A DNA stretch of 64,000 bases from Myxococcota bacterium (GTDB lineage: Bacteria; Myxococcota_A; UBA9160; UBA6930). Positions 42,320 to 53,963 of this stretch are shown here, one piece after another. A program made the translations under genes and the position numbers. Within the stretch, counting starts at the first letter, position 1. Each line of letters begins with the position of its first letter. The DNA lies in NCBI GenBank assembly GCA_965223705.1, contig OZ245015.1, positions 2,944,001-3,008,000 of the forward strand, in the 5' to 3' direction. Under the pieces are notes generated by a model that was given only the letters and a program-made list of their open reading frames with translations, did not search any database and had not been told where the DNA came from.

Positions 42320-44149
42320 CTAGCGGTGGTTCGCCGGCGGAAGCCACGTCGCCCCGATCTTCACCGTGTAGGTGCTGGGGTCGTCGTTCATGTTTTCCCC
42401 CTGGTAGGGGCCAATCCGCGCGATCCCGCTTCCGTCGACGTGCGGTGACGCTCCTGGACAGCCCGCTACGGGTGTGTTGACTCCGGTGCAGAAGCGAATG
42501 TCATCCGGGGCGGCGGGCGTCCCGCCGTTGCACTTGTTGTCGCCCGTGTACTGGCAGACCATCCGAGGGTCCGAATCGTTGTTGCCGCTGGCGTAGGATA
42601 GGCCGTTCAGGTTCGCGATCCCGGCCGGCGCGTTCGGCGTGTTCGCGTTGACGTTGGCGGTCGTCGCGCCTCCGCAATCGATATAGGTGCCACCACCTCT
42701 GTGGCTCTCCCTGACGTAGCTCCCCAACCTGTCGTCGACAAACCAAATCGCGTTGTCGTCGATCGATCTGGGCTGGTTGTTGATGTGCGAATACCAGCGG
42801 ACCAAATAGTCGCCAACGTCGAGAAAAACGTTTCCGTCGTACTTGGCGTTTACGTTCTGTCGATGGTCAGTATTCGTCCGGTCGCATGAGGCTTCCGCAG
42901 TGTCGCCGTTTTGGAACCCTTGTCGGGCCCGATAAATGAGGTTGTAGCGGTAGGTCTGATCATCGGACCCGAAATTCGTCGTGTAGGCGGTAAAACGAGT
43001 TCCCGTTGTTTGACTCCAGTAGAGGTTCCTCTCCCACAGTCCGACATTCGCGTCCTCGTCGTGGCCCGCCCCCTGGAACTTCGAAACACCGATGTGGTCA
43101 TTGCAGGACGCGCCTCCATTCAGGACGTACATCTCGTTCCTGGCGAAAGTAAAGTCGTGGTTGTCCCTCTTCGGGAAAACGAAGTCCCAGCCATTATTCG
43201 TTTCCGTGGATGGATCGCAGACAGCGAACGTGTTGTTCGACACGTCCATACCCACACCATTGTACGAACGCACACCGGCCCAAGACTTGCTGGGTCGGTT
43301 GGGATTGACGCCCACCCGCGCGAAGTAGTTGTATTTCGCGGTCGCCCCGTCGGACACGCCGAAATAGACGGAAGAATCGTTTCCCGATCCCCTTGCGGTG
43401 TAGTCCGACTCGAGCGAGGAAGCGAAGTAGTTCCATTCGACCCGAATCGTCTTGTCCTGAGTACCGACTCCAGATCCCCAGGCCCAAAAACCAGCTCTCT
43501 CGATCGTGCCTCTTTCGCCAAATCGGAAGCCGTACCATTCTCCGGCGGCTCGGGCTCGAGAATCGTTCGTGTCGATCTCAGGAATGGGTCGGTCATTGCC
43601 TGAAATCAGCGCGGTCGCTTCAAAGGCCGCGTCGCTCCCTGCGTTGAGAGGAGCCGCGGGATAGCCGAAGTTCACCATGCCCTGCGTCGGGGATGTGCTG
43701 AGTAGCGGACCTTGATTCCAAGCGGTCGCGGCGCTGCGCCCATCGATGAGCGTGTAGTTGCTCGGGACCTTCTTCCAGCAAACCGTACGAACGCCGTTGC
43801 CCCACAAGTCGATCCAGTTCGCATTGCTTGCGGCGTTGATGCCGAGGAGCTGCTCGTTGTAGTCGTAGGGATCGTCGAAAGAGCCTGTGTTCGAGGTGCC
43901 TCCGTCGTCCGCCACCCAGGCGATGCTGGAAGGCGTGTCGTCCTCGCCATCCGTGGCGTCCTCGAGGCAGGTGGTGTCGTAGGAGGCCGGAAAGCCAGTC
44001 GCGGCAGCCCGCTCCACGACAGGAGGCGGCGGCGGCGCGCCCTGGGTAGCGAGCTGGGGACGGCCCGGGGGGCCAATCTGAGCGATTGCTCCCGCTCCGA
44101 TCAGGAGTCCTAGAGCGAGAACGGGAAATACGACCAAACGCGGCGTCAT
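42320..44149 (-). CDS. Secreted hypothetical protein, probable parallel beta-helix
   Basis: SD GGAGGG before ATG 44149. Signal peptide, Pro-rich linker, repeated [YF/W]N[YTLV][FI] strands, Cys pairs, C-terminal DP...SP..DG...IGPY. Lower GC than flanks. Confidence 0.7.
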   Translation of the reverse strand: MTPRLVVFPVLALGLLIGAGAIAQIGPPGRPQLATQGAPPPPPVVERAAATGFPASYDTTCLEDATDGEDDTPSSIAWVADDGGTSNTGSFDDPYDYNEQLLGINAASNANWIDLWGNGVRTVCWKKVPSNYTLIDGRSAATAWNQGPLLSTSPTQGMVNFGYPAAPLNAGSDAAFEATALISGNDRPIPEIDTNDSRARAAGEWYGFRFGERGTIERAGFWAWGSGVGTQDKTIRVEWNYFASSLESDYTARGSGNDSSVYFGVSDGATAKYNYFARVGVNPNRPSKSWAGVRSYNGVGMDVSNNTFAVCDPSTETNNGWDFVFPKRDNHDFTFARNEMYVLNGGASCNDHIGVSKFQGAGHDEDANVGLWERNLYWSQTTGTRFTAYTTNFGSDDQTYRYNLIYRARQGFQNGDTAEASCDRTNTDHRQNVNAKYDGNVFLDVGDYLVRWYSHINNQPRSIDDNAIWFVDDRLGSYVRESHRGGGTYIDCGGATTANVNANTPNAPAGIANLNGLSYASGNNDSDPRMVCQYTGDNKCNGGTPAAPDDIRFCTGVNTPVAGCPGASPHVDGSGIARIGPYQGENMNDDPSTYTVKIGATWLPPANHR

Positions 44150-44365
44150 AATGCCCTCCGTGCGTGAGCCTCGCGCGAATAGATCGCATTCGTCGCGATT
44201 GAACTGCGTACGTCTCGTCACTACTTAGAAGGAACCTGAGGTCTCGAAGTTGCAGCTTTGACGCAGATCGGCGTCTAACGTCCCGAACCGCCACGGAAGA
44301 CCCCTCACCTGGGTTTCGCGCGGTTTAGCGCCCATCCGCGCGGTTTTCTTCGAGGCGTCGCGCGG

Positions 44366-44587: not shown

Positions 44588-45550
44588 CTAGTTCGCGACC
44601 AGGGCGCCGCCGCAGCTCGAACCGGCCCCTGCCGTACAGCCGAAGCAGTGCGCTCCGGTCCCGATTGGCTGGCCCGCCAGTTCTCGCAAATCGTCGACGT
44701 CGAAGATGGTCCTTCGGCGGCCCGGGAATGGAATCTCGAGCATCTGATTGAAATCGCAATCCCAGAGCGAACCGTCGTAAGCGACGGAGACGAGCTCGCG
44801 ACACATCACTCCGGCGAGGGTCTCCGGGTTAAAGTGATTGATTAAGAGGCTCATATAAGCCTCGAATTCCCCGTCCCTCTCGAGCGAGTGAGCAAACCGG
44901 CTGATCGGCATGTTCGCGATTGCGATCAGCCGGTTGAAGCGGATCCCGAAGGCCCGATCGAGCTCTTCGCGGTAGGTCGCCTCGAGCTCGTCCTCGGCGG
45001 GCGGGAGACTCCCGCCTTGGGGGTTGTACACGAGGTCGAGGCTGAGCTCGGGGTCGCGGCCGTACCCCAGCCGATTGAGCGTCTTCAGCGCGTCGACGCT
45101 TCGCCCGAAGACGCCCTTTCCGCGCTGGCGCTCGACGTTTTCGAGGCTGTAGCACGGGAGGGACGCCACGATGGCGACGCCTTGGTCCGCGAGAAACTCC
45201 GCAGTGTCCTCCTGGCCGGGTTCGTAGAGCACCGTCAGGTTACACCGATCGATCACGCGCTTTCCGAGCTGGCGCGCGCCGCGGACCAAACGGCGAAACC
45301 GTGGATGGAGCTCCGGCGCGCCGCCGGTTACGTCGAGCGTCTCGACGCCGGAGCTGCTCGCGAGTAGTTCGAGGACGCGCTCGATTCCGCGAGCGTCCAT
45401 CGCCTCGGTTCGCTTGGGGCCGCTCTCCACATGACAGTGGTGGCACGCGAGGTTGCAGCGCTTCCCGATGTTGAGCTGCAGGGTTCGGACCCGACCTCGG
45501 ACAAGCTCGGGCAGACCCCGTTGCTCGAGTTCTCTGGCAAAGGCGTTCAA
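44588..45550 (-). CDS. arsS: Arsenosugar biosynthesis radical SAM protein ArsS-like (DUF3641 C-terminus)
   Basis: TLQLNIGKRCNLACHHCHV, DVTGGAPE, IDRCNLT, SLPCY, DCDFNQ, HCFGCTAGAGSSCGG. Probable TTG start overlapping the arsM stop; ATG 45571 is the alternative. Confidence 0.88.
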   Translation of the reverse strand: MNAFARELEQRGLPELVRGRVRTLQLNIGKRCNLACHHCHVESGPKRTEAMDARGIERVLELLASSSGVETLDVTGGAPELHPRFRRLVRGARQLGKRVIDRCNLTVLYEPGQEDTAEFLADQGVAIVASLPCYSLENVERQRGKGVFGRSVDALKTLNRLGYGRDPELSLDLVYNPQGGSLPPAEDELEATYREELDRAFGIRFNRLIAIANMPISRFAHSLERDGEFEAYMSLLINHFNPETLAGVMCRELVSVAYDGSLWDCDFNQMLEIPFPGRRRTIFDVDDLRELAGQPIGTGAHCFGCTAGAGSSCGGALVAN

Positions 45551-46719
45551 CAGCAACCTTCGGGGCCGCATGCCGCACCCGGGTCGACGGTCGCTCGATA
45601 CTCGGCGCCTTTCGTCTCTCGGGGATCGCGGCGGGTGGTGCGACTGCAGTCAAATAGCGCTCGCTCGCCCTCGGGTATCGGGTCGCGTGGCGCGATCGAG
45701 ATCAAGTCGTCGCCGTAGGGCGAACTCGTCAGGATCTTGTGCGTCTTCGCGCAGACCGCGACGCGCTCGCCTCGCTCGAGGACATGGCCGTCGTCGTCTT
45801 CGACGCGCTTCCAGGGTCCGCGATACATCACGGCCTCGTTCGCCTCGTAGCAGGGTCCCTCCTTGCCTTTCGAAGCGGTCACGGTGACCGATCGGAACTC
45901 GATGCCCTCGACGACCGCGAAGGGTTCCTCGGCGAAGCTCTCGATCGCGATGCCGTAGAAACCCGCCGCCTCGAGCGACCGCAAGAAGCCGCGTTCCTCG
46001 AACGCGCCCGAAATGCATCCGCTCCACAGGGCGGGGTCGTTCTTCAAATGATCCGGAATCGGCTCGTCGCTCACGATGTCCGAAATCGCGATTCGTCCGC
46101 CGACGCGGAGAACGCGAAAGATCTCGCGGATGAGCGTCTCTTTGTCCTGCTCGCGGACCAGGTTCAACACGCAGTTCGACACGACGAGATCGACCGAAGC
46201 GTCGGGAATCATCGGATCGCGTCGGCGAAGCTCGTCGCACACGGCGGTCAAGGCATCGAGGTCGCGGCTGCTGGTTACGGGATTCGCGCGCAACCATTCA
46301 TCGACGCGGTCCATGTCGAGAGCGAGGTCCTGGATACGTCCACGCCGAAATTCGACGTTCGCGTAGCCGACGCGCTCAGCGACGACCGGTGCAGCGCCGC
46401 GCGCCAGCGCCAGCATTTCGTCGGTCATGTCGACGCCGATTACGCGACCTTTGGCGCCGACCACCTGGGACGCGATGAAGCAGATCTTGCCACCGCCACT
46501 TCCGAGGTCGAGAACGGTGTCGCCTTCGCGGGCGAAGCGCGAAGGATCGCCGCAACCGTAATCCCGCTCCAAGACGTCTTCTGGGATCACCTCGAGGTAG
46601 CGGGAGTCATAGTCCACGGGACAACAGAGGCTCGGTTCCTGGGCCCCGGCGGCGGCGCTGTAGCGCTGACGGACGGCGTCTTCCGCCGAAGCCGTGGGTG
46701 TGAGGTGCTCGCTGGTCAT
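45547..46719 (-). CDS. arsM: SAM-dependent arsenite methyltransferase-like protein
   Basis: LCCPVDY, YGCGDP, VLDLGSGGG, VSNCVLNL, WSGCISGA, C-terminal CC. SD GGAGGA before ATG 46719. Coupled to arsS. Confidence 0.8.
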   Translation of the reverse strand: MTSEHLTPTASAEDAVRQRYSAAAGAQEPSLCCPVDYDSRYLEVIPEDVLERDYGCGDPSRFAREGDTVLDLGSGGGKICFIASQVVGAKGRVIGVDMTDEMLALARGAAPVVAERVGYANVEFRRGRIQDLALDMDRVDEWLRANPVTSSRDLDALTAVCDELRRRDPMIPDASVDLVVSNCVLNLVREQDKETLIREIFRVLRVGGRIAISDIVSDEPIPDHLKNDPALWSGCISGAFEERGFLRSLEAAGFYGIAIESFAEEPFAVVEGIEFRSVTVTASKGKEGPCYEANEAVMYRGPWKRVEDDDGHVLERGERVAVCAKTHKILTSSPYGDDLISIAPRDPIPEGERALFDCSRTTRRDPRETKGAEYRATVDPGAACGPEGCC

Positions 46720-46807
46720 GTGTTCCTCCGCGGCGGTCCGCTGAGAATACAGCGTCGCAGATTCCGCCGAGAAAGATACGCTCGGGGCCGGAGGAGGTTT
46801 CGCCAAA

Positions 46808-48019
46808 ATGGCCGATACAGCGAGCCCGCGACGCGCCCTGGTCTTGTCGGGAGGTGGCGCGCGGGGGGCCTATGAAGCAGGGGTACTCTCGTACGTGTTC
46901 GAACACGTCTTCCCCGAGTGCGGCCCCGACGGCGAGTTCGAGATCGCGAGCGGTACCTCCGTGGGCGCGATTCACGCGGCCTACACTACGGCGACGCGCG
47001 GGATGCCCGGCCCGGCGCGTGCGCGCGGACTCCTCGAAGCCTGGGAGTCGATGCGCCTCGCGGAGATGCTGACGCTGCGGGCCTCGGATTTGTGGCGCAT
47101 CCCCTTGCGCGTATTCGGGCTGCGGAGCGAGCGCGCCGTATCGGGACGCACGCTCGGAGGACTCGTCGACGTCTCGCGGCTCGAAGATCTCGTCACGGGA
47201 CGCATCCCCTGGGACCAACTTCGCGAACGCCTGGAGACCGACCGGGTCGCGCTGTGCGTTTCGTGCACGGAAGTCCGCAGCGGCCAGGTCGTGGTCTTCA
47301 TGGCGGGCCAACTCGCCCAGGAGGACGCCTGGGCCTTCGACCCGAACGCCCGGGCCGTGGCCGGCCGGGTCGACCCGCTCCACGTGCGGGCGTCGGCCGC
47401 GATCCCTTTCTTGTTCCCGGCCGTTCGAATCGGCGAGCGCTACTACGTCGATGGGGGGCTTCGGATGAATACGCCGCTCTCCCCGGCCCTGCGGCTGGGC
47501 GCGGACCGGGTCTTCGTCGTGTGCCTGAGGCACCCGCCGAGAGCCGACGAAGACCGGCCTGCGTACCCGGAATCCGCCGTGACCTCACCGGCTTTTCTGC
47601 TGGGCAAGGTGATGAACGCCTTGACACTCGACCAGCTCGAATACGACCTGAAGCGCCTCGAGTTGGTCAACAACATGATCACGCAGGGAGAAGCGGTCTA
47701 CGGCGCCGATTTTCTCGAGCGCATGAACGTCGCGGTCCGCGCCCAGCGCGGGGCCGGCTACCGCCCCGTCGACGCCGAGGCGCTGCGCCCGAGCGAGGAT
47801 TTGGGGGCGCTGGCCGCGGCTTGCTTCGAGCGGGAATCCGCCTCGATGGGCACGGTGGCCCGGTGGCTCGGGCGCGTAACGATCCACGAAGGCGGCCGGG
47901 AGGCCGATCTGCTCTCCTACCTCCTGTTCGATCGCTGCTACACGCGCCGGTTGATCGAGCTCGGTCGCGAAGACGCCGCCGCACGCGCGGATGCGATCCG
48001 GAACCTGCTCGAGACTTGA
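46808..48019 (+). CDS. Patatin-like phospholipase
   Basis: LVLSGGGARGAY, GTSVG and DGG all intact. Confidence 0.9.
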   Translation: MADTASPRRALVLSGGGARGAYEAGVLSYVFEHVFPECGPDGEFEIASGTSVGAIHAAYTTATRGMPGPARARGLLEAWESMRLAEMLTLRASDLWRIPLRVFGLRSERAVSGRTLGGLVDVSRLEDLVTGRIPWDQLRERLETDRVALCVSCTEVRSGQVVVFMAGQLAQEDAWAFDPNARAVAGRVDPLHVRASAAIPFLFPAVRIGERYYVDGGLRMNTPLSPALRLGADRVFVVCLRHPPRADEDRPAYPESAVTSPAFLLGKVMNALTLDQLEYDLKRLELVNNMITQGEAVYGADFLERMNVAVRAQRGAGYRPVDAEALRPSEDLGALAAACFERESASMGTVARWLGRVTIHEGGREADLLSYLLFDRCYTRRLIELGREDAAARADAIRNLLET

Positions 48020-48066
48020 CCGGCTGCCGTCGTTGCGGCGAAGCTTCGGCTCGAGGAGCCACCGTT

Positions 48067-49875
48067 TTGGGAGATACAGCGATCCCGGCAGGCCCGCAGC
48101 CGGCGTGCGATCCGCGCGATGTCATCCACCCCGCCGCGACTCCGCCGCGGGAAGATGATCTCGAAGCGACCTCGGTCTGGGGTTTTCGCGACAGCGCTTT
48201 CTCGGTCAACGCCCGCGGCCACGTGGAATTCTCGGGCGATCGCTACGCCATCGCCGGGCAAGAGCTGACGGAGCTTCTCCCCTGGATGGCGAAGACCCTA
48301 AAGGTCGATCTCGATCCCGCAGACCGATTCCCGCGCGCATCGAGCCAGCCGGTTCCCGACCCGCGAGCGTCCTCCGAGCTGTTGGCCGAGTTCGCGAAAG
48401 CCCTCTCGCCCGAACGGGTCTGCGTCTCTCCCGAGCGCCGGTTGCGCTGCTCTCATGGGCACACCCAAGACGAGATTTTCGCCTTGCATACCGGCGGGTT
48501 GAAGAGAATCGTCGACGTGGTGGTCGAGCCCGCGTCCCGCGCGGAGATCGCCGCCGTGCTCGAGCTTTCGCGAGAACACAACGCGTGCGTCGTGCCCTAC
48601 GGCGGCGGGACGAACGTCACGCTGGCGCTCGCTCCGCCACCCGGTGAAGCACGGACCTGGGTCGCGCTCGATCTCCGTCGCATGAATCGCGTTCGCTGGA
48701 TCGATCCGCGCAACCGCCTGGCGTGCATCGAGGCCGGCGCCGTGGGCCGTACGCTCCAAGCGACGCTTGCCGAGCACGGATTCACGTTGGGACACGAGCC
48801 CGACAGCATCGAGTTCTCCACGCTCGGCGGGTGGATCGCGACCGCAGCCAGCGGCATGAAGAAAAACCGTTATGGGAACATCGAGGACCTCGTCGTCGAC
48901 GTCGAAGCGGTGACGCCGAGCGGCACTCTCGGGCGTGCGCGGTCCGCGCCGCGTGAGTCCGTGGGAAACGATCCGGCGAATTGGCTGATCGGGTCCGAGG
49001 GCTCCCTCGGCGTCATCACCTGCGCTGTGGTGAAACTCTTTCCCCTGCCCGAGGTGAAGCGCTACGCCTCCGTCGTCTTCCGGGATTTCGGAAGCGGGCT
49101 GGGCTTCATCGAAGCCTTAAACGCCGAGGGCGACCTTCCCGCGAGCGTGCGACTCGTCGACAACCTGCAGTTCCAGTTCAGCCAAGCGCTGCGTCCGCAA
49201 AGCCACGGCTGGCGAGCCCGCAAGCGACAACTCGAGCGCTGGTTCGTCACCCGGGTGAAAGGATTCGAACCGGATCGAATGACCGCCTGCACCCTGGTGT
49301 ACGAAGGCAGCGCCTCGCACGTGAGGCACCAGGAGAAGCGTGTAGCCCGTCTGACGCGACAGTTCGGCGGTCTCGCCGGGGGCGCCGAAAACGGCGAACG
49401 GGGCTACCAGCTGACGTTCAGCATCGCGTACATCCGCGACTTCGCCCTGCAGCACTTCATTCTGGGCGAGTCGTTCGAAACATCGGTCGCGTGGAGCGAT
49501 CTCGAAAAGCTCTGCGAGAACGTGAAGCAGCGGCTCTACGCCGAACACGACAAGCGGGGCCTACCGGGCCGCCCGTTCGTGACGTGCCGGGTGACGCAGC
49601 TCTACGACACCGGGGTGTGCGTCTACTTTTACTTCGCGTTCCATTTTCAAGGTGTCACGCAACCTTCCGAATTATTTGCTGAAATTGAACGAGCGGCGAG
49701 GGATGAGATTCTCGCCAGCGGGGGCTCGCTCTCCCATCACCACGGCATCGGAAAACTTCGAGCCGGCTTTCTCGATCGGGTCTTTTCGGGCGCCGCGCTG
49801 AGATTTCGGCGTGAGCTCAAACATCAAATCGATCCCGAGAATCTGCTCGGTGCGGGGAACCAAGGGCTCTCGTGA
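48067..49875 (+). CDS. agps: Alkyl-dihydroxyacetonephosphate (alkylglycerone-phosphate) synthase, eukaryote-like FAD enzyme
   Basis: WGFRDS, HGHTQDEI, PYGGGTNV, GHEPDSIEFSTLGGWI, SGMKKNRYGNIEDL, SVRLVDNLQFQF, GESFETS, CRVTQLYD.G.CVYFYF, GGSLSHHHGIGK. TTG start after GAGGAG. Confidence 0.88.
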   Translation: MGDTAIPAGPQPACDPRDVIHPAATPPREDDLEATSVWGFRDSAFSVNARGHVEFSGDRYAIAGQELTELLPWMAKTLKVDLDPADRFPRASSQPVPDPRASSELLAEFAKALSPERVCVSPERRLRCSHGHTQDEIFALHTGGLKRIVDVVVEPASRAEIAAVLELSREHNACVVPYGGGTNVTLALAPPPGEARTWVALDLRRMNRVRWIDPRNRLACIEAGAVGRTLQATLAEHGFTLGHEPDSIEFSTLGGWIATAASGMKKNRYGNIEDLVVDVEAVTPSGTLGRARSAPRESVGNDPANWLIGSEGSLGVITCAVVKLFPLPEVKRYASVVFRDFGSGLGFIEALNAEGDLPASVRLVDNLQFQFSQALRPQSHGWRARKRQLERWFVTRVKGFEPDRMTACTLVYEGSASHVRHQEKRVARLTRQFGGLAGGAENGERGYQLTFSIAYIRDFALQHFILGESFETSVAWSDLEKLCENVKQRLYAEHDKRGLPGRPFVTCRVTQLYDTGVCVYFYFAFHFQGVTQPSELFAEIERAARDEILASGGSLSHHHGIGKLRAGFLDRVFSGAALRFRRELKHQIDPENLLGAGNQGLS

Positions 49876-51977
49876 CACGGACCGTCCTGTTGAGCGGAGC
49901 TACGGGCTTCGTCGGAAAGGTCCTGCTCGAACGCCTCCTCGCGGAGCGCGAAGCGCTCGGGATCGAGCGCGTGATCGCGCTCGTTCGCGCGCACGACGAC
50001 GATGCGGCACGCGCGCGGCTCGAACACGAGGTGCTCTCCTCGGAGTGCTTTTCGAGACTGCCCGCCGAAGCCAGATCGCCGGTTGCGGCCGCGGCCTTCG
50101 ATCTGACGCTCCCGGAGCTCGGCCTCTCGGCCGAAGCACGGCGCGACATCCTCGAACACGTCACGCACGTCCTCCACGGAGCGGCCTCGGTGGAATTCGA
50201 GCTCCCTCTACGCGAAGCCGTACAGATCAACGCCGAAGGCTCTCTCGCGATGCTCGAGCTCGCGGAGGCGTGTCGACATCCGGTGGTCTTCGGTCTCATT
50301 TCGACGGCTTACGCGACACCTCACCAAACCGGCGAGATCGCAGAGGATCGGCTCGCTCCCCTGCCGCGACCCGCGCGCGCGCTCTACGAGGACAGCCGGG
50401 CCGTCGGCGACGAAGCGCGCGCGCTTGCCGAGACCGGTCATCCGAACACCTACACGTGGAGCAAATGCTTGGCGGAGCATCTCGTCGCCGAGCGCGCCGA
50501 GCGCTCTCGGGTGCGTATCCTGCGGCCGAGCATCGTTTCCGCTTGCTCGGAGCGACCGTTTCCCGGCTGGATCGACAGCGGCGCCGCGTTCGCAGGCTTC
50601 GTCACATTGCTCGGCACGGGACAACTGCGCGCCGTCTGTGCACGACCGGACGTGCAGCTCGACATCGTTCCGTGCGACCGGGTCTGCGAGGAAGCGATCG
50701 CGCTCTGCTTCGAGGACGATCCTTCCGCGTGCGTCATCCGGCACGCTGTGGCCGGCTCGGCGGGGTCGCTTCCGATCGCGATGTGCCGCCGCGAGATCGC
50801 TCGGTTTTTCCTCCGTTTCCCCGTCGGCCTCGGACCCCGCATCCGCTTCGTCGGCCCCGACGGATTGCGCTTTCGGATCGCCGACTGGCTGTTTCACGAA
50901 GTCCCGTTTCGGTTGCGCGGAGCGTTCTCCTCCTTGCGCGGCGACGCCGTCCGCGCCGGCGCGGCGCTGCGGAGCCTCGACCGCGTGCGCCAGCTGAACC
51001 GAACGTTCCATCACTTCACCCATCGGGAATTCACTTTTCGAACGGAATCCGCGCGCGACCTGGGCGGATCTCGCGAGCGGTACCTCGAAATCGTGTGCCG
51101 GGGGGTGTACCGGCATCTGTTGCGGCGCGACGATTCCGAATGCCCCATCGCCGGCTCCGAAGCTCCCCGGTCCCTACCGGTTCCGATTCGGGATCGCTTC
51201 CGAGTCGGTTGGCTCCGCGCCGCGCTCCGCCGGGTGGCTCCGCTCGTCACTTACGAGCCCGGCGGCCTCGAGAAGGCGGTGTCCGATCTCGGGCGAGCGC
51301 CCACGGTCCTTCTGACGTCGCGGACGGGCGGGTGCCTCGATGTCGCGATCGTTCGCCTGCTCGTGTCCCTGCGACCTGAACTCGGCCTTCTCCACCTGCG
51401 AGAAGTGCAAGACGCGGCGGGGCTGCAAGCTGCACTCCGCGCGCATGAGACGCCGGTGCTCGCGGCCTCGAGCGACACGCGGGCCGCGGCGGAAACGATC
51501 CGAGTCGCCGGCAGCCCGATCACCGTGCTTCCGATTCCAATTCATTTCGAACACCCGCTTCCGAACGACGCCGCTCCCTTGCGGATCCGCGACGTCTTTT
51601 TCAGAGCGATGCCCCGGGTCGGCCGCATTCACGCTCGCTGCGGTGCACCTCTGACGATCGAAGGCAGCGCCGAGCCCGGGACTCTCACCGCGCGACTCGA
51701 TCAAGCGTTGCGCCGCGCCGCGCCGCTCTCGAGCCAGGAGCTACGGTCTTTCGTGCGCGCTCAGCGCATCGACGTCCACCCGGGTCGGCTCGCCGAGGCG
51801 TTGCGACGCCGGGGTGAGCAGGTACTCCGAACGCGCTCCGCGGGAAATGACTCAGACGCGTTTCCGCGCTTTCTGTGGCGCCTCGCGCCGACGTCGACCC
51901 GACCGGCCGACGGAGCGGATGAGGACGCTCCGGAGCTCTGCGCGTTTCACCAAGCCCTACGGACCGGTTGGCCCTAG
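49872..51977 (+). CDS. Alcohol-forming fatty acyl-CoA reductase (male-sterility type) fused to a degenerate GNPAT/GPAT-like domain
   Basis: SGATGFVGKVLLERLL, HGAASV.F, HPNTYTWSK (YxxxK), RPSIV...PFPGWID, DIVPCD. C-terminal PTVLLTS...LD, VLPIPIHFE, GRIHARCGAP. GTGA overlap with AGPS. Confidence 0.82.
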   Translation: MTRTVLLSGATGFVGKVLLERLLAEREALGIERVIALVRAHDDDAARARLEHEVLSSECFSRLPAEARSPVAAAAFDLTLPELGLSAEARRDILEHVTHVLHGAASVEFELPLREAVQINAEGSLAMLELAEACRHPVVFGLISTAYATPHQTGEIAEDRLAPLPRPARALYEDSRAVGDEARALAETGHPNTYTWSKCLAEHLVAERAERSRVRILRPSIVSACSERPFPGWIDSGAAFAGFVTLLGTGQLRAVCARPDVQLDIVPCDRVCEEAIALCFEDDPSACVIRHAVAGSAGSLPIAMCRREIARFFLRFPVGLGPRIRFVGPDGLRFRIADWLFHEVPFRLRGAFSSLRGDAVRAGAALRSLDRVRQLNRTFHHFTHREFTFRTESARDLGGSRERYLEIVCRGVYRHLLRRDDSECPIAGSEAPRSLPVPIRDRFRVGWLRAALRRVAPLVTYEPGGLEKAVSDLGRAPTVLLTSRTGGCLDVAIVRLLVSLRPELGLLHLREVQDAAGLQAALRAHETPVLAASSDTRAAAETIRVAGSPITVLPIPIHFEHPLPNDAAPLRIRDVFFRAMPRVGRIHARCGAPLTIEGSAEPGTLTARLDQALRRAAPLSSQELRSFVRAQRIDVHPGRLAEALRRRGEQVLRTRSAGNDSDAFPRFLWRLAPTSTRPADGADEDAPELCAFHQALRTGWP

Positions 51978-52816
51978 ATCGCGATTCGGGCAGGCGGCGC
52001 CGGCAGACCGGGCGTTTCGACCCGTGTCCGAAGCAAACATCCGTCGAGTGCGCCTTCCGTGTGGTCGGCGGTGACGACAAAGAGATCCCGCAGGTCTTCG
52101 CCGCCGAAGCACAAGCTCGTGACCGCTCGCGATGGAACCGTCAGGGTTTCTACGTGGCGGCCCGACGCGTCGAAGTGGTCGATCCCCCCACCGTCGTAGT
52201 TCGCGACCCAGACGTCCCCGGCGCGGTCGACGGCGAGCCCATCGGGCAGTCCGCGGGACAACTTCGCGAAGACGCGCCGCCCGCTCACCTCCCCGTTTTC
52301 CGCAGCGTCGTGGAGGATGATCGCTCCATCGGCCGAATCGCTGTGGTAGAGCTTGCGGCCGTCGGGCGAGAAACCGATGCCGTTCGTCAGGCCGACGTCG
52401 CCGTAGAGCTCCTCGACGGAGCCATCCAAATCGATCCGATACAGCTCGCCCGGAATGCGATCCTTCCCCTGGTCGAAGGGATTCGAGCGCAACGAGCCGA
52501 CGTAAACGCGACCGGTCTCATCGGCGAACAGGTCGTTGAATCCCCCGACCTCCGGAATTTCCAGCAAGATGGTGGTCACGCCATCGCGAACATGGCAGAT
52601 GTTGCGACCCGACATCACGAGGCCACCGTCCGCGTGGAGTGCGATCCCACCGACCCCGCGCCGTTTGGGAACCACGGTCGCGACGCCGCCGGACTCGTCG
52701 ACGGCGTACACGCCGCCCCGTGTGACGTCGGCCATGAAAAGAGCGCCATCGCGATAGCGGGGTCCCTCGAGCAGGCCGAAACCGTGAGCTAAGACGTCGA
52801 ACTGCGGTGTCGTCAT
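51974..52816 (-). CDS. SMP-30/gluconolactonase/LRE family protein
   Basis: LEGPR, FND, TNGIGFSPDG, PDGLAVD, TSLCFGG. Confidence 0.9.
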   Translation of the reverse strand: MTTPQFDVLAHGFGLLEGPRYRDGALFMADVTRGGVYAVDESGGVATVVPKRRGVGGIALHADGGLVMSGRNICHVRDGVTTILLEIPEVGGFNDLFADETGRVYVGSLRSNPFDQGKDRIPGELYRIDLDGSVEELYGDVGLTNGIGFSPDGRKLYHSDSADGAIILHDAAENGEVSGRRVFAKLSRGLPDGLAVDRAGDVWVANYDGGGIDHFDASGRHVETLTVPSRAVTSLCFGGEDLRDLFVVTADHTEGALDGCLLRTRVETPGLPAPPARIAI

Positions 52817-52892
52817 GGCCCGAGCCTATCACGAGGTGAAGTCGCTTCGGCAACCCCTCCCCGCTTCCGGACCTTCGCGGTAGCGTACGCCC

Positions 52893-53963
52893 GTGACGAC
52901 ACAAACCGTCATGCCCGAACTCGCCCCGGTCCGCGCGGGCGAGGAATTCGATCACGATGCGGTCGACGCGTTCGCGAAACGCCACGTCGACGGGCTCACC
53001 GGCAGACTCGAAGTCCTTCAATTTCCGGGAGGCCACGCGAACCTCACGTACTTGCTCCGCTACGGCGAACGCGAGCTCGTCCTCAGGCGACCGCCTTTTG
53101 GGCCGATTCCGCCGGGCGCAAACGACATGGTCCGCGAATACAAGGTCCTGTCGAAACTCTGGCGGTACTTCGACCGCGCGCCCCGCGCCTTCGCGCTCTG
53201 TGAAGATCCCGGTGTGATCGGCGCGACGTTCCTCCTGATGGAGCGCCGGCACGGACTGGTTGTGCGCAACGCGATTCCCGAAGAGATGAGACATCACAAG
53301 GATGTCGAACGGCGCGTGAGCTTGGCGTTGATCGACGCCATGGTCGATTTCCACGACATCGACTTCCAGGAGGCGGGGTTCGGAGACCTCGGCCGCCCCG
53401 AAGGTTTCGTCGATCGCCAGCTCGAGGGTTGGCACAAGCGGTGGCACCTCGCCAAGGATCGGGAGGTCGCCGCGGTCGATCGATTGCACGCCCGCCTCTT
53501 GGCGGACCAACCCCGCTCCCCGCAAGCCACACTCGTTCACAACGACTTCAAGCTCGACAACGGGCAGTTTGACGCCGACAACCCGGACCGAATCCAGTCG
53601 ATCTTCGATTGGGACATGACCACCCTGGGCGATCCTCTGATCGATTTGGGAACCGTGCTCAGCTACTGGGTCGAATCCCAGGCATACGAGCCCGAGCGCG
53701 TGACGGTCACGCTGATGGGACAAGCGGGCTTCCCGAAGCCGGTCGAGCTGGCGGAACACTACGCGGGGCAGCGCGACGTCTCGGTGGAAACCATCGCCTG
53801 GTACACGAGCTTCGCGCTCTGGAAGCTCGCGATCGTGGTGCAGCAAATCTACATCCGTTGGAAGAACGGCCAGACGACGGACGAGCGCTTCAGCACGTTC
53901 GGTCAGCGCGTCGAGGGTCTCGTCGAACTCGGTTTCCGCGCCGCCGACGGAGACCTCGGCTAG
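52893..53963 (+). CDS. APH-family phosphotransferase
   Basis: QFPGGHANLTY, VLRRPP, LVHNDFKLDN, FDWDM, GDPLIDLG. Confidence 0.9.
   Translation: MTTQTVMPELAPVRAGEEFDHDAVDAFAKRHVDGLTGRLEVLQFPGGHANLTYLLRYGERELVLRRPPFGPIPPGANDMVREYKVLSKLWRYFDRAPRAFALCEDPGVIGATFLLMERRHGLVVRNAIPEEMRHHKDVERRVSLALIDAMVDFHDIDFQEAGFGDLGRPEGFVDRQLEGWHKRWHLAKDREVAAVDRLHARLLADQPRSPQATLVHNDFKLDNGQFDADNPDRIQSIFDWDMTTLGDPLIDLGTVLSYWVESQAYEPERVTVTLMGQAGFPKPVELAEHYAGQRDVSVETIAWYTSFALWKLAIVVQQIYIRWKNGQTTDERFSTFGQRVEGLVELGFRAADGDLG

Follow-up and report, generated by a model that had tools for sequence, protein, structure and literature searches.

The ether-lipid locus at positions 46808-51977 of a 64,000-nucleotide stretch of contig OZ245015.1 from a Myxococcota bacterium (the whole stretch is called the window below) was analysed. 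It is a reduced form of a published operon type, MXAN_1676-1675-1674 of Myxococcus xanthus. The locus almost certainly descended from the myxobacterial operon for alkyl-dihydroxyacetone phosphate synthase (AGPS), a fatty acyl-CoA reductase (FAR) fused to an acyltransferase (the fusion is called FARAT) and an NAD-epimerase. By its sequence, the FAD enzyme belongs to the true alkyl-DHAP synthases (AGPS, EC 2.5.1.26; DHAP, dihydroxyacetone phosphate), and the gene behind it is a FARAT-derived FAR, predicted to be of the alcohol-forming type, fused to an acyltransferase remnant. On balance, the AGPS-FAR pair would still make ether lipid with acyl-DHAP supplied in trans. The main features are as follows (aa, amino acids).

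46808-48019, + strand, patatin-like lipase gene, 403 aa
48067-49875, + strand, AGPS gene, 602 aa, with a TTG start at 48067 and GAGGAG upstream
49872-51977, + strand, FAR gene (FARAT-derived), 701 aa
49872-51131, + strand, FAR domain, aa 1-420 of the FARAT-derived gene, with Rossmann GATGFVG, STAY and catalytic YTWSK
51210-51848, + strand, decayed acyltransferase domain of GNPAT/PlsB type (aa 447-659), joined to FAR in the same frame

The three open reading frames were co-oriented, as a preliminary description of this DNA had stated, with a 47-bp gap between patatin and AGPS and a GTGA overlap between AGPS and FAR at 49872-49875. The assembly chimera that this description had considered was ruled out by identical contigs from three runs. 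A 30-kb contig of run X1 spanned 45885-53000 with zero differences or gaps, and contigs of runs X3 (48987-51981) and X4 (47051-52546) were letter-for-letter identical to the window; all three runs belong to a single study, with the source sample possibly among them, which makes them a check on the assembly and not an independent occurrence. A run X5 had just two short pieces in common with the region. The scan of the locus for promoters and terminators gave no signal exceeding chance.

Residues 23-598 of AGPS aligned to guinea-pig AGPS (PDB 4bby) with 541 bits (E 3e-161), compared with 280 bits to Dictyostelium AGPS (2uuu) and at most 100 bits to glycolate and D-lactate oxidases. The animal AGPS motifs listed in the preliminary description were present. 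The identity to the guinea-pig enzyme was ~43% by hand count (~247 identities in 579 columns). R362, Y520 and H557-H559 aligned with the active-site residues R419, Y578 and H615-H617 of the guinea-pig enzyme, and the PDB chains 4bc7 and 4bca are altered at exactly R419 and Y578. The likeness to mammalian peroxisomal AGPS (4bby/4bca/4bc7) is thus whole-length, and the positions of H300, T309, R419, R515, Y578 and H615-617 are kept; unlike the mammalian enzyme, the window protein is operon-encoded, lacks the N-terminal leader of ~60 aa and does not stand as bacterial sister to the animal enzyme. At the ten active-site positions examined, almost all bacterial relatives had the same residues as the window, and 7 aligned relatives of its family from four genera showed no change. 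Two distant AGPS-like paralogues (29% identity), L002 at G000:C1:3435354-3437423 and L003 at 837452-839332 of the window genome (G000), retain the AGPS-type R, Y and HHH.

The FAR domain carried the motifs GATGFVG (residue 9), STAY (144), YTWSK (194), RPSI (218) and PFPGW (229) and matched Pfam NAD_binding_4 (PF07993) at E 5e-58. Its closest structural relative was the FAR 7eoz (E 1e-24), compared with E 2e-9 for reductases of nonribosomal peptide synthetases. A C-terminal Sterile domain (PF03015) is typical of alcohol-forming FAR; it had no Pfam match at E 0.001, and residues 285-420 nevertheless aligned with bacterial FAR and FARAT relatives. The alcohol-forming-type motifs reported in the preliminary description were present, but the protein is not the plain FAR it was taken for, because its last ~280 residues appear to be a decayed acyltransferase domain.

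This tail scored 48 bits to a profile of 29 AGPS-neighbouring FARAT/GNPAT domains (the best of 500 shuffles scored 1.0), and the same profile found it in a genome-wide search at E 4e-11. The hhalign probability was 97.5% (E 8e-12), and the profile itself matched solved glycerol-3-phosphate acyltransferases (GPATs). Pfam gave no match for the part of the gene beyond the FAR domain, and phmmer of the tail against PDB gave nothing useful. Motif I reads TSRTGGCLD at residues 482-490 (51315-51341), where relatives have PSHRSYLD. Moreover, ~80 profile positions that hold motifs II and III were replaced by ~36 residues without EGxRS, and the missing motif III (EGxR) was not found in any of the six frames. 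Both HxxxxD (motif I) and motif III are required for catalysis in the GPAT family (PMC4280512). The tail is, on these motifs, the acyltransferase domain of a FARAT that has lost the motif I His and motif III, and is predicted to be catalytically dead. Because the fused acyltransferase has lost its catalytic sites, acyl-DHAP would have to come from elsewhere. A frameshift or assembly error behind the odd tail was ruled out, since among the frames the FAR frame alone matched the acyltransferase profile and the contigs were letter-identical.

The state of the fusion was followed across genomes. Related genomes numbered 41 (own included) and named loci from a GTDB scan numbered 80; these are separate counts and not additive. 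AGPS was present in 13 of the 41 genomes, with FAR adjacent in 11, and just two genomes of other families (G030 and G035) had an intact FARAT acyltransferase and the NAD-epimerase. Among the nine AGPS-bearing genomes of the window family an intact FARAT acyltransferase was seen in none: the window has the remnant tail, seven have a FAR ending at 416-437 aa, and in G023 the gene is cut by the contig. The completeness of the family genomes was 75-97%, so that some genes lying elsewhere may have escaped detection. A FAR tree of 36 rows gave no resolved position for the window, and hence no number or order of acyltransferase losses. AGPS stood directly upstream of FAR in all nine family genomes, the small ones of 2.1-2.8 Mb included, and the FAR motifs were kept in 8/8 family relatives, with loci of 45-74% GC. 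This lasting pairing argues for continued selection on the pair and is the main reason to think that the route is alive.

In the GTDB scan, at least 524 of 597 candidate stretches were confirmed as encoding AGPS relatives, and the best 80 of them spanned Acidobacteriota, Gemmatimonadota, Spirochaetota, Myxococcota, Binatia and others. These best 80 loci had FARAT in 24 cases, FAR cut by the locus end in three, FAR with a remnant tail in two (Spirochaetes), FAR alone in one, a stand-alone acyltransferase in three, and neither FAR nor acyltransferase in 47 (35 with at least 3 kb downstream); in L028, a short truncated stretch of FAR fell below the threshold. The AGPS-FAR linkage was thus seen in 30/80, the NAD-epimerase gene in 18/80 (17 of these with FARAT) and patatin in 1/80. 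Hence, the synteny proposed in the preliminary description held for AGPS and FAR, whereas patatin was linked only within the genus. Other arrangements were noted: AGPS with a stand-alone acyltransferase and no FAR in L024, L038 and L040 (Binataceae), FAR with a remnant acyltransferase in L033 and L043 (Spirochaetes), AGPS and epimerase only in L073 (Spirochaetales), and acyltransferase-AGPS fusions in P0129 and P0226. L022, a 7-kb contig of a metagenome-assembled Candidatus Poseidoniales archaeon, carries FARAT, epimerase and AGPS, by transfer or mis-binning. The AGPS of L088 is split by two frameshifts, through decay or assembly error.

In M. xanthus, MXAN_1676 encodes AGPS (~42% identity to human), MXAN_1675 a FAR with a GNPAT-like part and MXAN_1674 a protein of the NAD-dependent epimerase family (PMC9131029). 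Deletion of MXAN_1676 affects the ether lipids (PMC9131029; PMC13012113), and its disruption lowers them slightly, ElbD being the main route (PMC9131029, PMC13159169). The window shares with this operon, whose proteins were compared by description, the order of AGPS then FAR-acyltransferase and a similar AGPS distance to mammals (~43% to guinea pig vs ~42% to human). It differs in its acyltransferase without the motif I His and motif III, in the patatin upstream, and in that neither an NAD-epimerase gene nor an ElbD-type second route was found. The NAD-epimerase gene was taken as the MXAN_1674 counterpart from position and family alone; the best match in the window genome was E 1e-23 (none at 1e-25), compared with at most 1e-111 for 20 operon copies.

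The eukaryote-style ether-lipid operon in a bacterium that the preliminary description pointed out is not new: the M. xanthus operon and the myxobacterial origin of the eukaryotic pathway are already in print (PMC9131029, PMC13012113). The latter study (PNAS 2026) derived eukaryotic PEDS1 and FARAT from myxobacteria, detected the four enzymes in 73 genomes of bacteria and reported too little phylogenetic signal in AGPS. Its Datasets S4 and S5 contain the FAR and AGPS (genes _1 and _2) of contig DKAI01000155.1 from UBA6930 sp002450755 (Myxococcota_A, class UBA9160), while a PlsB-type protein from the same genome is entered in its Dataset S2 as the GNPAT hit; its main text, as far as it was available, makes no mention of patatin or UBA9160. 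That contig (L075) has ArsS-ArsM, patatin, AGPS and FAR in the same order as the window, which probably places the window in that lineage. It differs in its FAR, which is 436 aa long and lacks the tail. In a sponge preprint, agps matches are reported from Poribacteria, Acidobacteriota and Latescibacterota. A literature search that covered few subscription papers found no description of the reduced operon form, and none of the matches listed in a search on UBA9160 ether lipids names UBA9160.

A FAR with a C-terminal GPAT-family domain is also known from the protist FARATs of Tetrahymena, Dictyostelium and kinetoplastids (PMC13012113). In Holozoa, FARAT underwent fission into FAR and GNPAT (PMC13012113). 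The window resembles this case in that the fusion breaks up; unlike there, its acyltransferase was destroyed and not freed as a gene of its own, and a stand-alone FARAT-type GNPAT was not found in the genome. The remnant domain would capture a seldom-seen intermediate in the break-up of a FARAT fusion, one that parallels the animal fission and yet differs from it.

In the proposed mechanism, FAR would reduce acyl-CoA (or acyl-acyl carrier protein) to a fatty alcohol, and AGPS would put this alcohol in place of the acyl group on acyl-DHAP, yielding alkyl-DHAP. The acyl-DHAP would be supplied in trans, most simply by the stand-alone PlsB-type GPAT (870 aa, G000:C1:3821036-3823645) as a side activity; this is the one such enzyme of the genome, and its HRSYFD and EGGRSR are intact. 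PlsY was not found in this genome, which is 95% complete. An unlinked short-chain reductase may then produce alkyl-glycerol 3-phosphate (alkyl-G3P), which would enter ordinary phospholipid synthesis; the Dictyostelium reductases for the alkyl-DHAP step are redundant (PMC13256971). Lipids of the 1-O-alkyl (plasmanyl) type would result, probably in small amounts. In the genome, neither a second strong ElbD-like FAR nor the DUF2229 domain that belongs to the anaerobic Ger/PlsA route was found.

A complete aerobic plasmalogen pathway is not indicated, and plasmalogens are probably not made. A CarF-like gene (PF10520) is present (L113 1318-2049; G000:C1:2595930-2596661), but its protein has Gly nine residues after FxxHH, where 10 of 13 rows have His (2/15 loci lay outside the pattern). 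This column is presumably the equivalent of H113. H113 is essential in CarF/PEDS1 (PMC9131029), and it is because the desaturase lacks the His that marks a working enzyme that the product is probably not a plasmalogen. The CarF-like copy of G030 shares the odd motif, with Arg at the His column. The CarF-like gene of the window genome precedes a probable GTP cyclohydrolase I-like gene (labelled by eye) and may belong to a distinct CarF/PEDS1 subfamily.

Several observations weigh against a working AGPS-FAR route fed in trans. Two of the four ancestral operon steps are missing, and a self-sufficient module is not supported, given that the DHAP acyltransferase is predicted to be dead and that the gene for the putative reductase is absent. 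No paper on a bacterial PlsB making acyl-DHAP was found in the literature search, and in HeLa cells the GPATs fail to make up for a loss of GNPAT in ether-lipid synthesis (10.1101/2024.01.17.576130). PlsB-type genes occurred in 39/41 relatives, with or without AGPS, and nothing ties PlsB to the pathway. In M. xanthus, the AGPS route is the minor one (PMC9131029, PMC13159169). The codon signal of the tail was 0.17 bits per codon vs 0.33 for the FAR domain. Furthermore, three WS/DGAT wax ester synthase genes of the genome could use the fatty alcohol instead, and the AGPS of the same-genus genome G002 (L112 741-2551) is split by a frameshift, through decay or assembly error.

The last two points, with the decayed acyltransferase, the NAD-epimerase gene that was not found and the presence of AGPS in just 8/24 other family genomes, also fit an ether route that is being lost, in which AGPS would be short of substrate and FAR kept for wax esters via WS/DGAT. 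We consider such a loss rather unlikely, as it does not account for the ten active-site positions unchanged in the window and its seven family relatives, or for AGPS standing directly upstream of FAR in every AGPS-bearing genome of the family, even the smallest.

The tail could also be a kept pseudo-enzyme domain that serves as a membrane anchor or AGPS docking site, or could transfer acyl groups by a changed chemistry. GNPAT and AGPS act in a complex in mammals (PMC9131029). The tail stays open for 281 codons in frame despite its large deletions, for which the chance of no stop is ~0.006 at such composition, and an alignment-guided model was confident (mean predicted local distance difference test, pLDDT, 77), although this model leans on the homologues; its top three Foldseek matches were GPAT1, squash GPAT and PlsC, all at E >0.001. 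The single-sequence AlphaFold model, in contrast, failed (pLDDT 37, meaningless). In a word-index search with the tail as query, the tail itself was the single hit among 7998 candidates (lengths 385-1227), and weak matches occurred in 5/200 other class genomes, to FARAT-type domains where checked. Moreover, both same-genus genomes have lost the tail entirely. A retained function of the tail is therefore decidedly unlikely.

The genes that flank the pair could instead provide a salvage feed in place of the dead GNPAT domain. The patatin would release monoacylglycerol or a lyso-lipid, a kinase would convert it to 1-acyl-G3P, and a reversed reductase would yield acyl-DHAP. The kinase gene is the following.

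52893-53963, + strand, ACAD10/11-type APH-fold kinase gene, a possible alkyl/acylglycerol kinase

In the window as in G002, the pair has these two genes on either side. The kinase matched PDB 9o56 at E 6e-92, a structure that would fit the C. thermarum ACAD10 kinase (alkylglycerol kinase) of PMC13596139 by the numbering of D214, K216, N219, D234 and E236. C. elegans ACAD10 phosphorylates alkyl- and acylglycerols (PMC13596139). The window kinase, however, has DWD where the enzyme of that paper needs DWE, and it faces another way from its own promoter region. It was found in 22/41 relatives, which are 8/13 of the AGPS-bearing and 14/28 of the AGPS-less genomes and show no clear association with AGPS, and outside the genus neither gene adjoins AGPS (patatin in the single case among the best 80 loci, the kinase only in L112 of 92 loci). 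Five or six acyltransferase-less genomes of other genera lack both neighbours. Such a salvage feed is accordingly very unlikely; the kinase is a genus-level neighbour of the pair whose membership of the pathway is possible.

The patatin has intact motifs (GGGARG at 15, GTSVG at 49, DGG at 215; PF01734 E 9e-25) and is probably co-transcribed with AGPS-FAR. The preliminary description had treated it as a dedicated part of the module, which the related genomes do not support: relatives occurred in 29/41, mostly unlinked to AGPS, and of 30 patatin loci only those in three genomes of the window genus were AGPS-adjacent. Copies 56-60% identical were found in genomes without an AGPS match (G008, G017, G029, G031, G037 and G039). 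The patatin is most likely a general lipase whose position upstream arose in the window genus, and nothing marks a pathway role.

A dedicated three-gene module of eukaryotic type near the source of the eukaryotic pathway is scarcely credible: the AGPS does fall inside the clade of eukaryotic AGPS and scores higher to the mammalian than to the Dictyostelium structure, but at least 524 GTDB stretches encode relatives, the patatin link is genus-specific, and the finer branching separates the window from the nematode, oomycete and heterolobosean AGPS. The AGPS tree was built with IQ-TREE (LG+G4, no mixture model) from 38 rows chosen out of 191, with five named eukaryotic rows; the AGPS trees contained neither vertebrate AGPS nor MXAN_1676. 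The window lay inside a clade with 100/100 support that holds the eukaryotic AGPS (33 rows vs five outgroup rows) and, within it, grouped with bacterial, unnamed and two diatom sequences (98/99), with nematode, oomycete and heterolobosean AGPS outside. A constraint that joined the window and the relative from its genus to those three eukaryotes and three unnamed neighbours was rejected by the approximately unbiased (AU) test (p-AU 0.0017), the tested group having been chosen after tree inspection. A FastTree of all 191 rows gave the same broad picture but joined long branches. For this sample, a special sister position of the window AGPS to the sampled eukaryotic AGPS is rejected, a result that is silent on the direction of transfer. 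With an identity to mammals like that of MXAN_1676 as well, the special bearing on the origin of the eukaryotic pathway that had been suggested for the locus was not borne out.

The diatom sequences were noteworthy in themselves. In Nitzschia inconspicua (P0132 and P0292; KAG7374222.1, 2294 aa), an acyl-CoA-binding protein (ACBP), a DegT-like pyridoxal phosphate (PLP) part, FAR, acyltransferase and AGPS lie in one chain, which would hold the complete entry into ether-lipid synthesis. The unnamed P0137, P0141 and P0152 are the same giant fusions, and P0143 and P0164 lack the ACBP/PLP part. The acyltransferase of the giant fusions matched the bacterial FARAT profile at E ~1e-77. The diatom AGPS stood among bacterial ones (87/88), which hints at a separate transfer into diatoms. 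A literature search found no description of a diatom FAR-AGPS fusion, and Dataset S5 of PMC13012113 has Fragilariopsis and Pseudo-nitzschia AGPS only as proteins of ~560 aa.

A broader form of the trans-supply reading can be put forward tentatively, with the odds against it: an entire family within UBA9160 would make alkyl ether lipids with AGPS and FAR alone, the dedicated DHAP acyltransferase and reductase having been discarded, and the window genome would represent a half-way state of this loss. If so, acyl-DHAP from an unrecognised source (PlsB acting on DHAP, or salvage by patatin and an ACAD10-type kinase) would be a GNPAT-independent entry to AGPS chemistry, and could explain the many Acidobacteriota AGPS genes without an adjacent FAR or GNPAT (35/80 best loci with at least 3 kb downstream). 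If the window bacteria still make ether lipids, an uncharacterised acyl-DHAP source is indicated. Furthermore, gene-presence surveys in which a PlsB-type hit passes for GNPAT can score the pathway as present although the dedicated acyltransferase is dead or absent.

The remaining genes around the locus are listed below.

51974-52816, - strand, SMP-30/gluconolactonase gene, convergent, closing the operon
45547-46719, - strand, ArsM-like methyltransferase gene, divergent from patatin
44588-45571, - strand, ArsS-type radical SAM gene (TIGR04167 above cut-off)
42320-44221, - strand, gene for a 633-aa, probably secreted Asn/Gly/Thr-rich protein with no Pfam match and lower GC

The SMP-30/gluconolactonase gene also lies downstream of FAR in G002. 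No linkage of patatin to ArsM/ArsS was seen within 1.5 kb outside the genus. The ArsS and ArsM-like genes form an arsenosugar-type pair, and their order is identical in L075 and L111.

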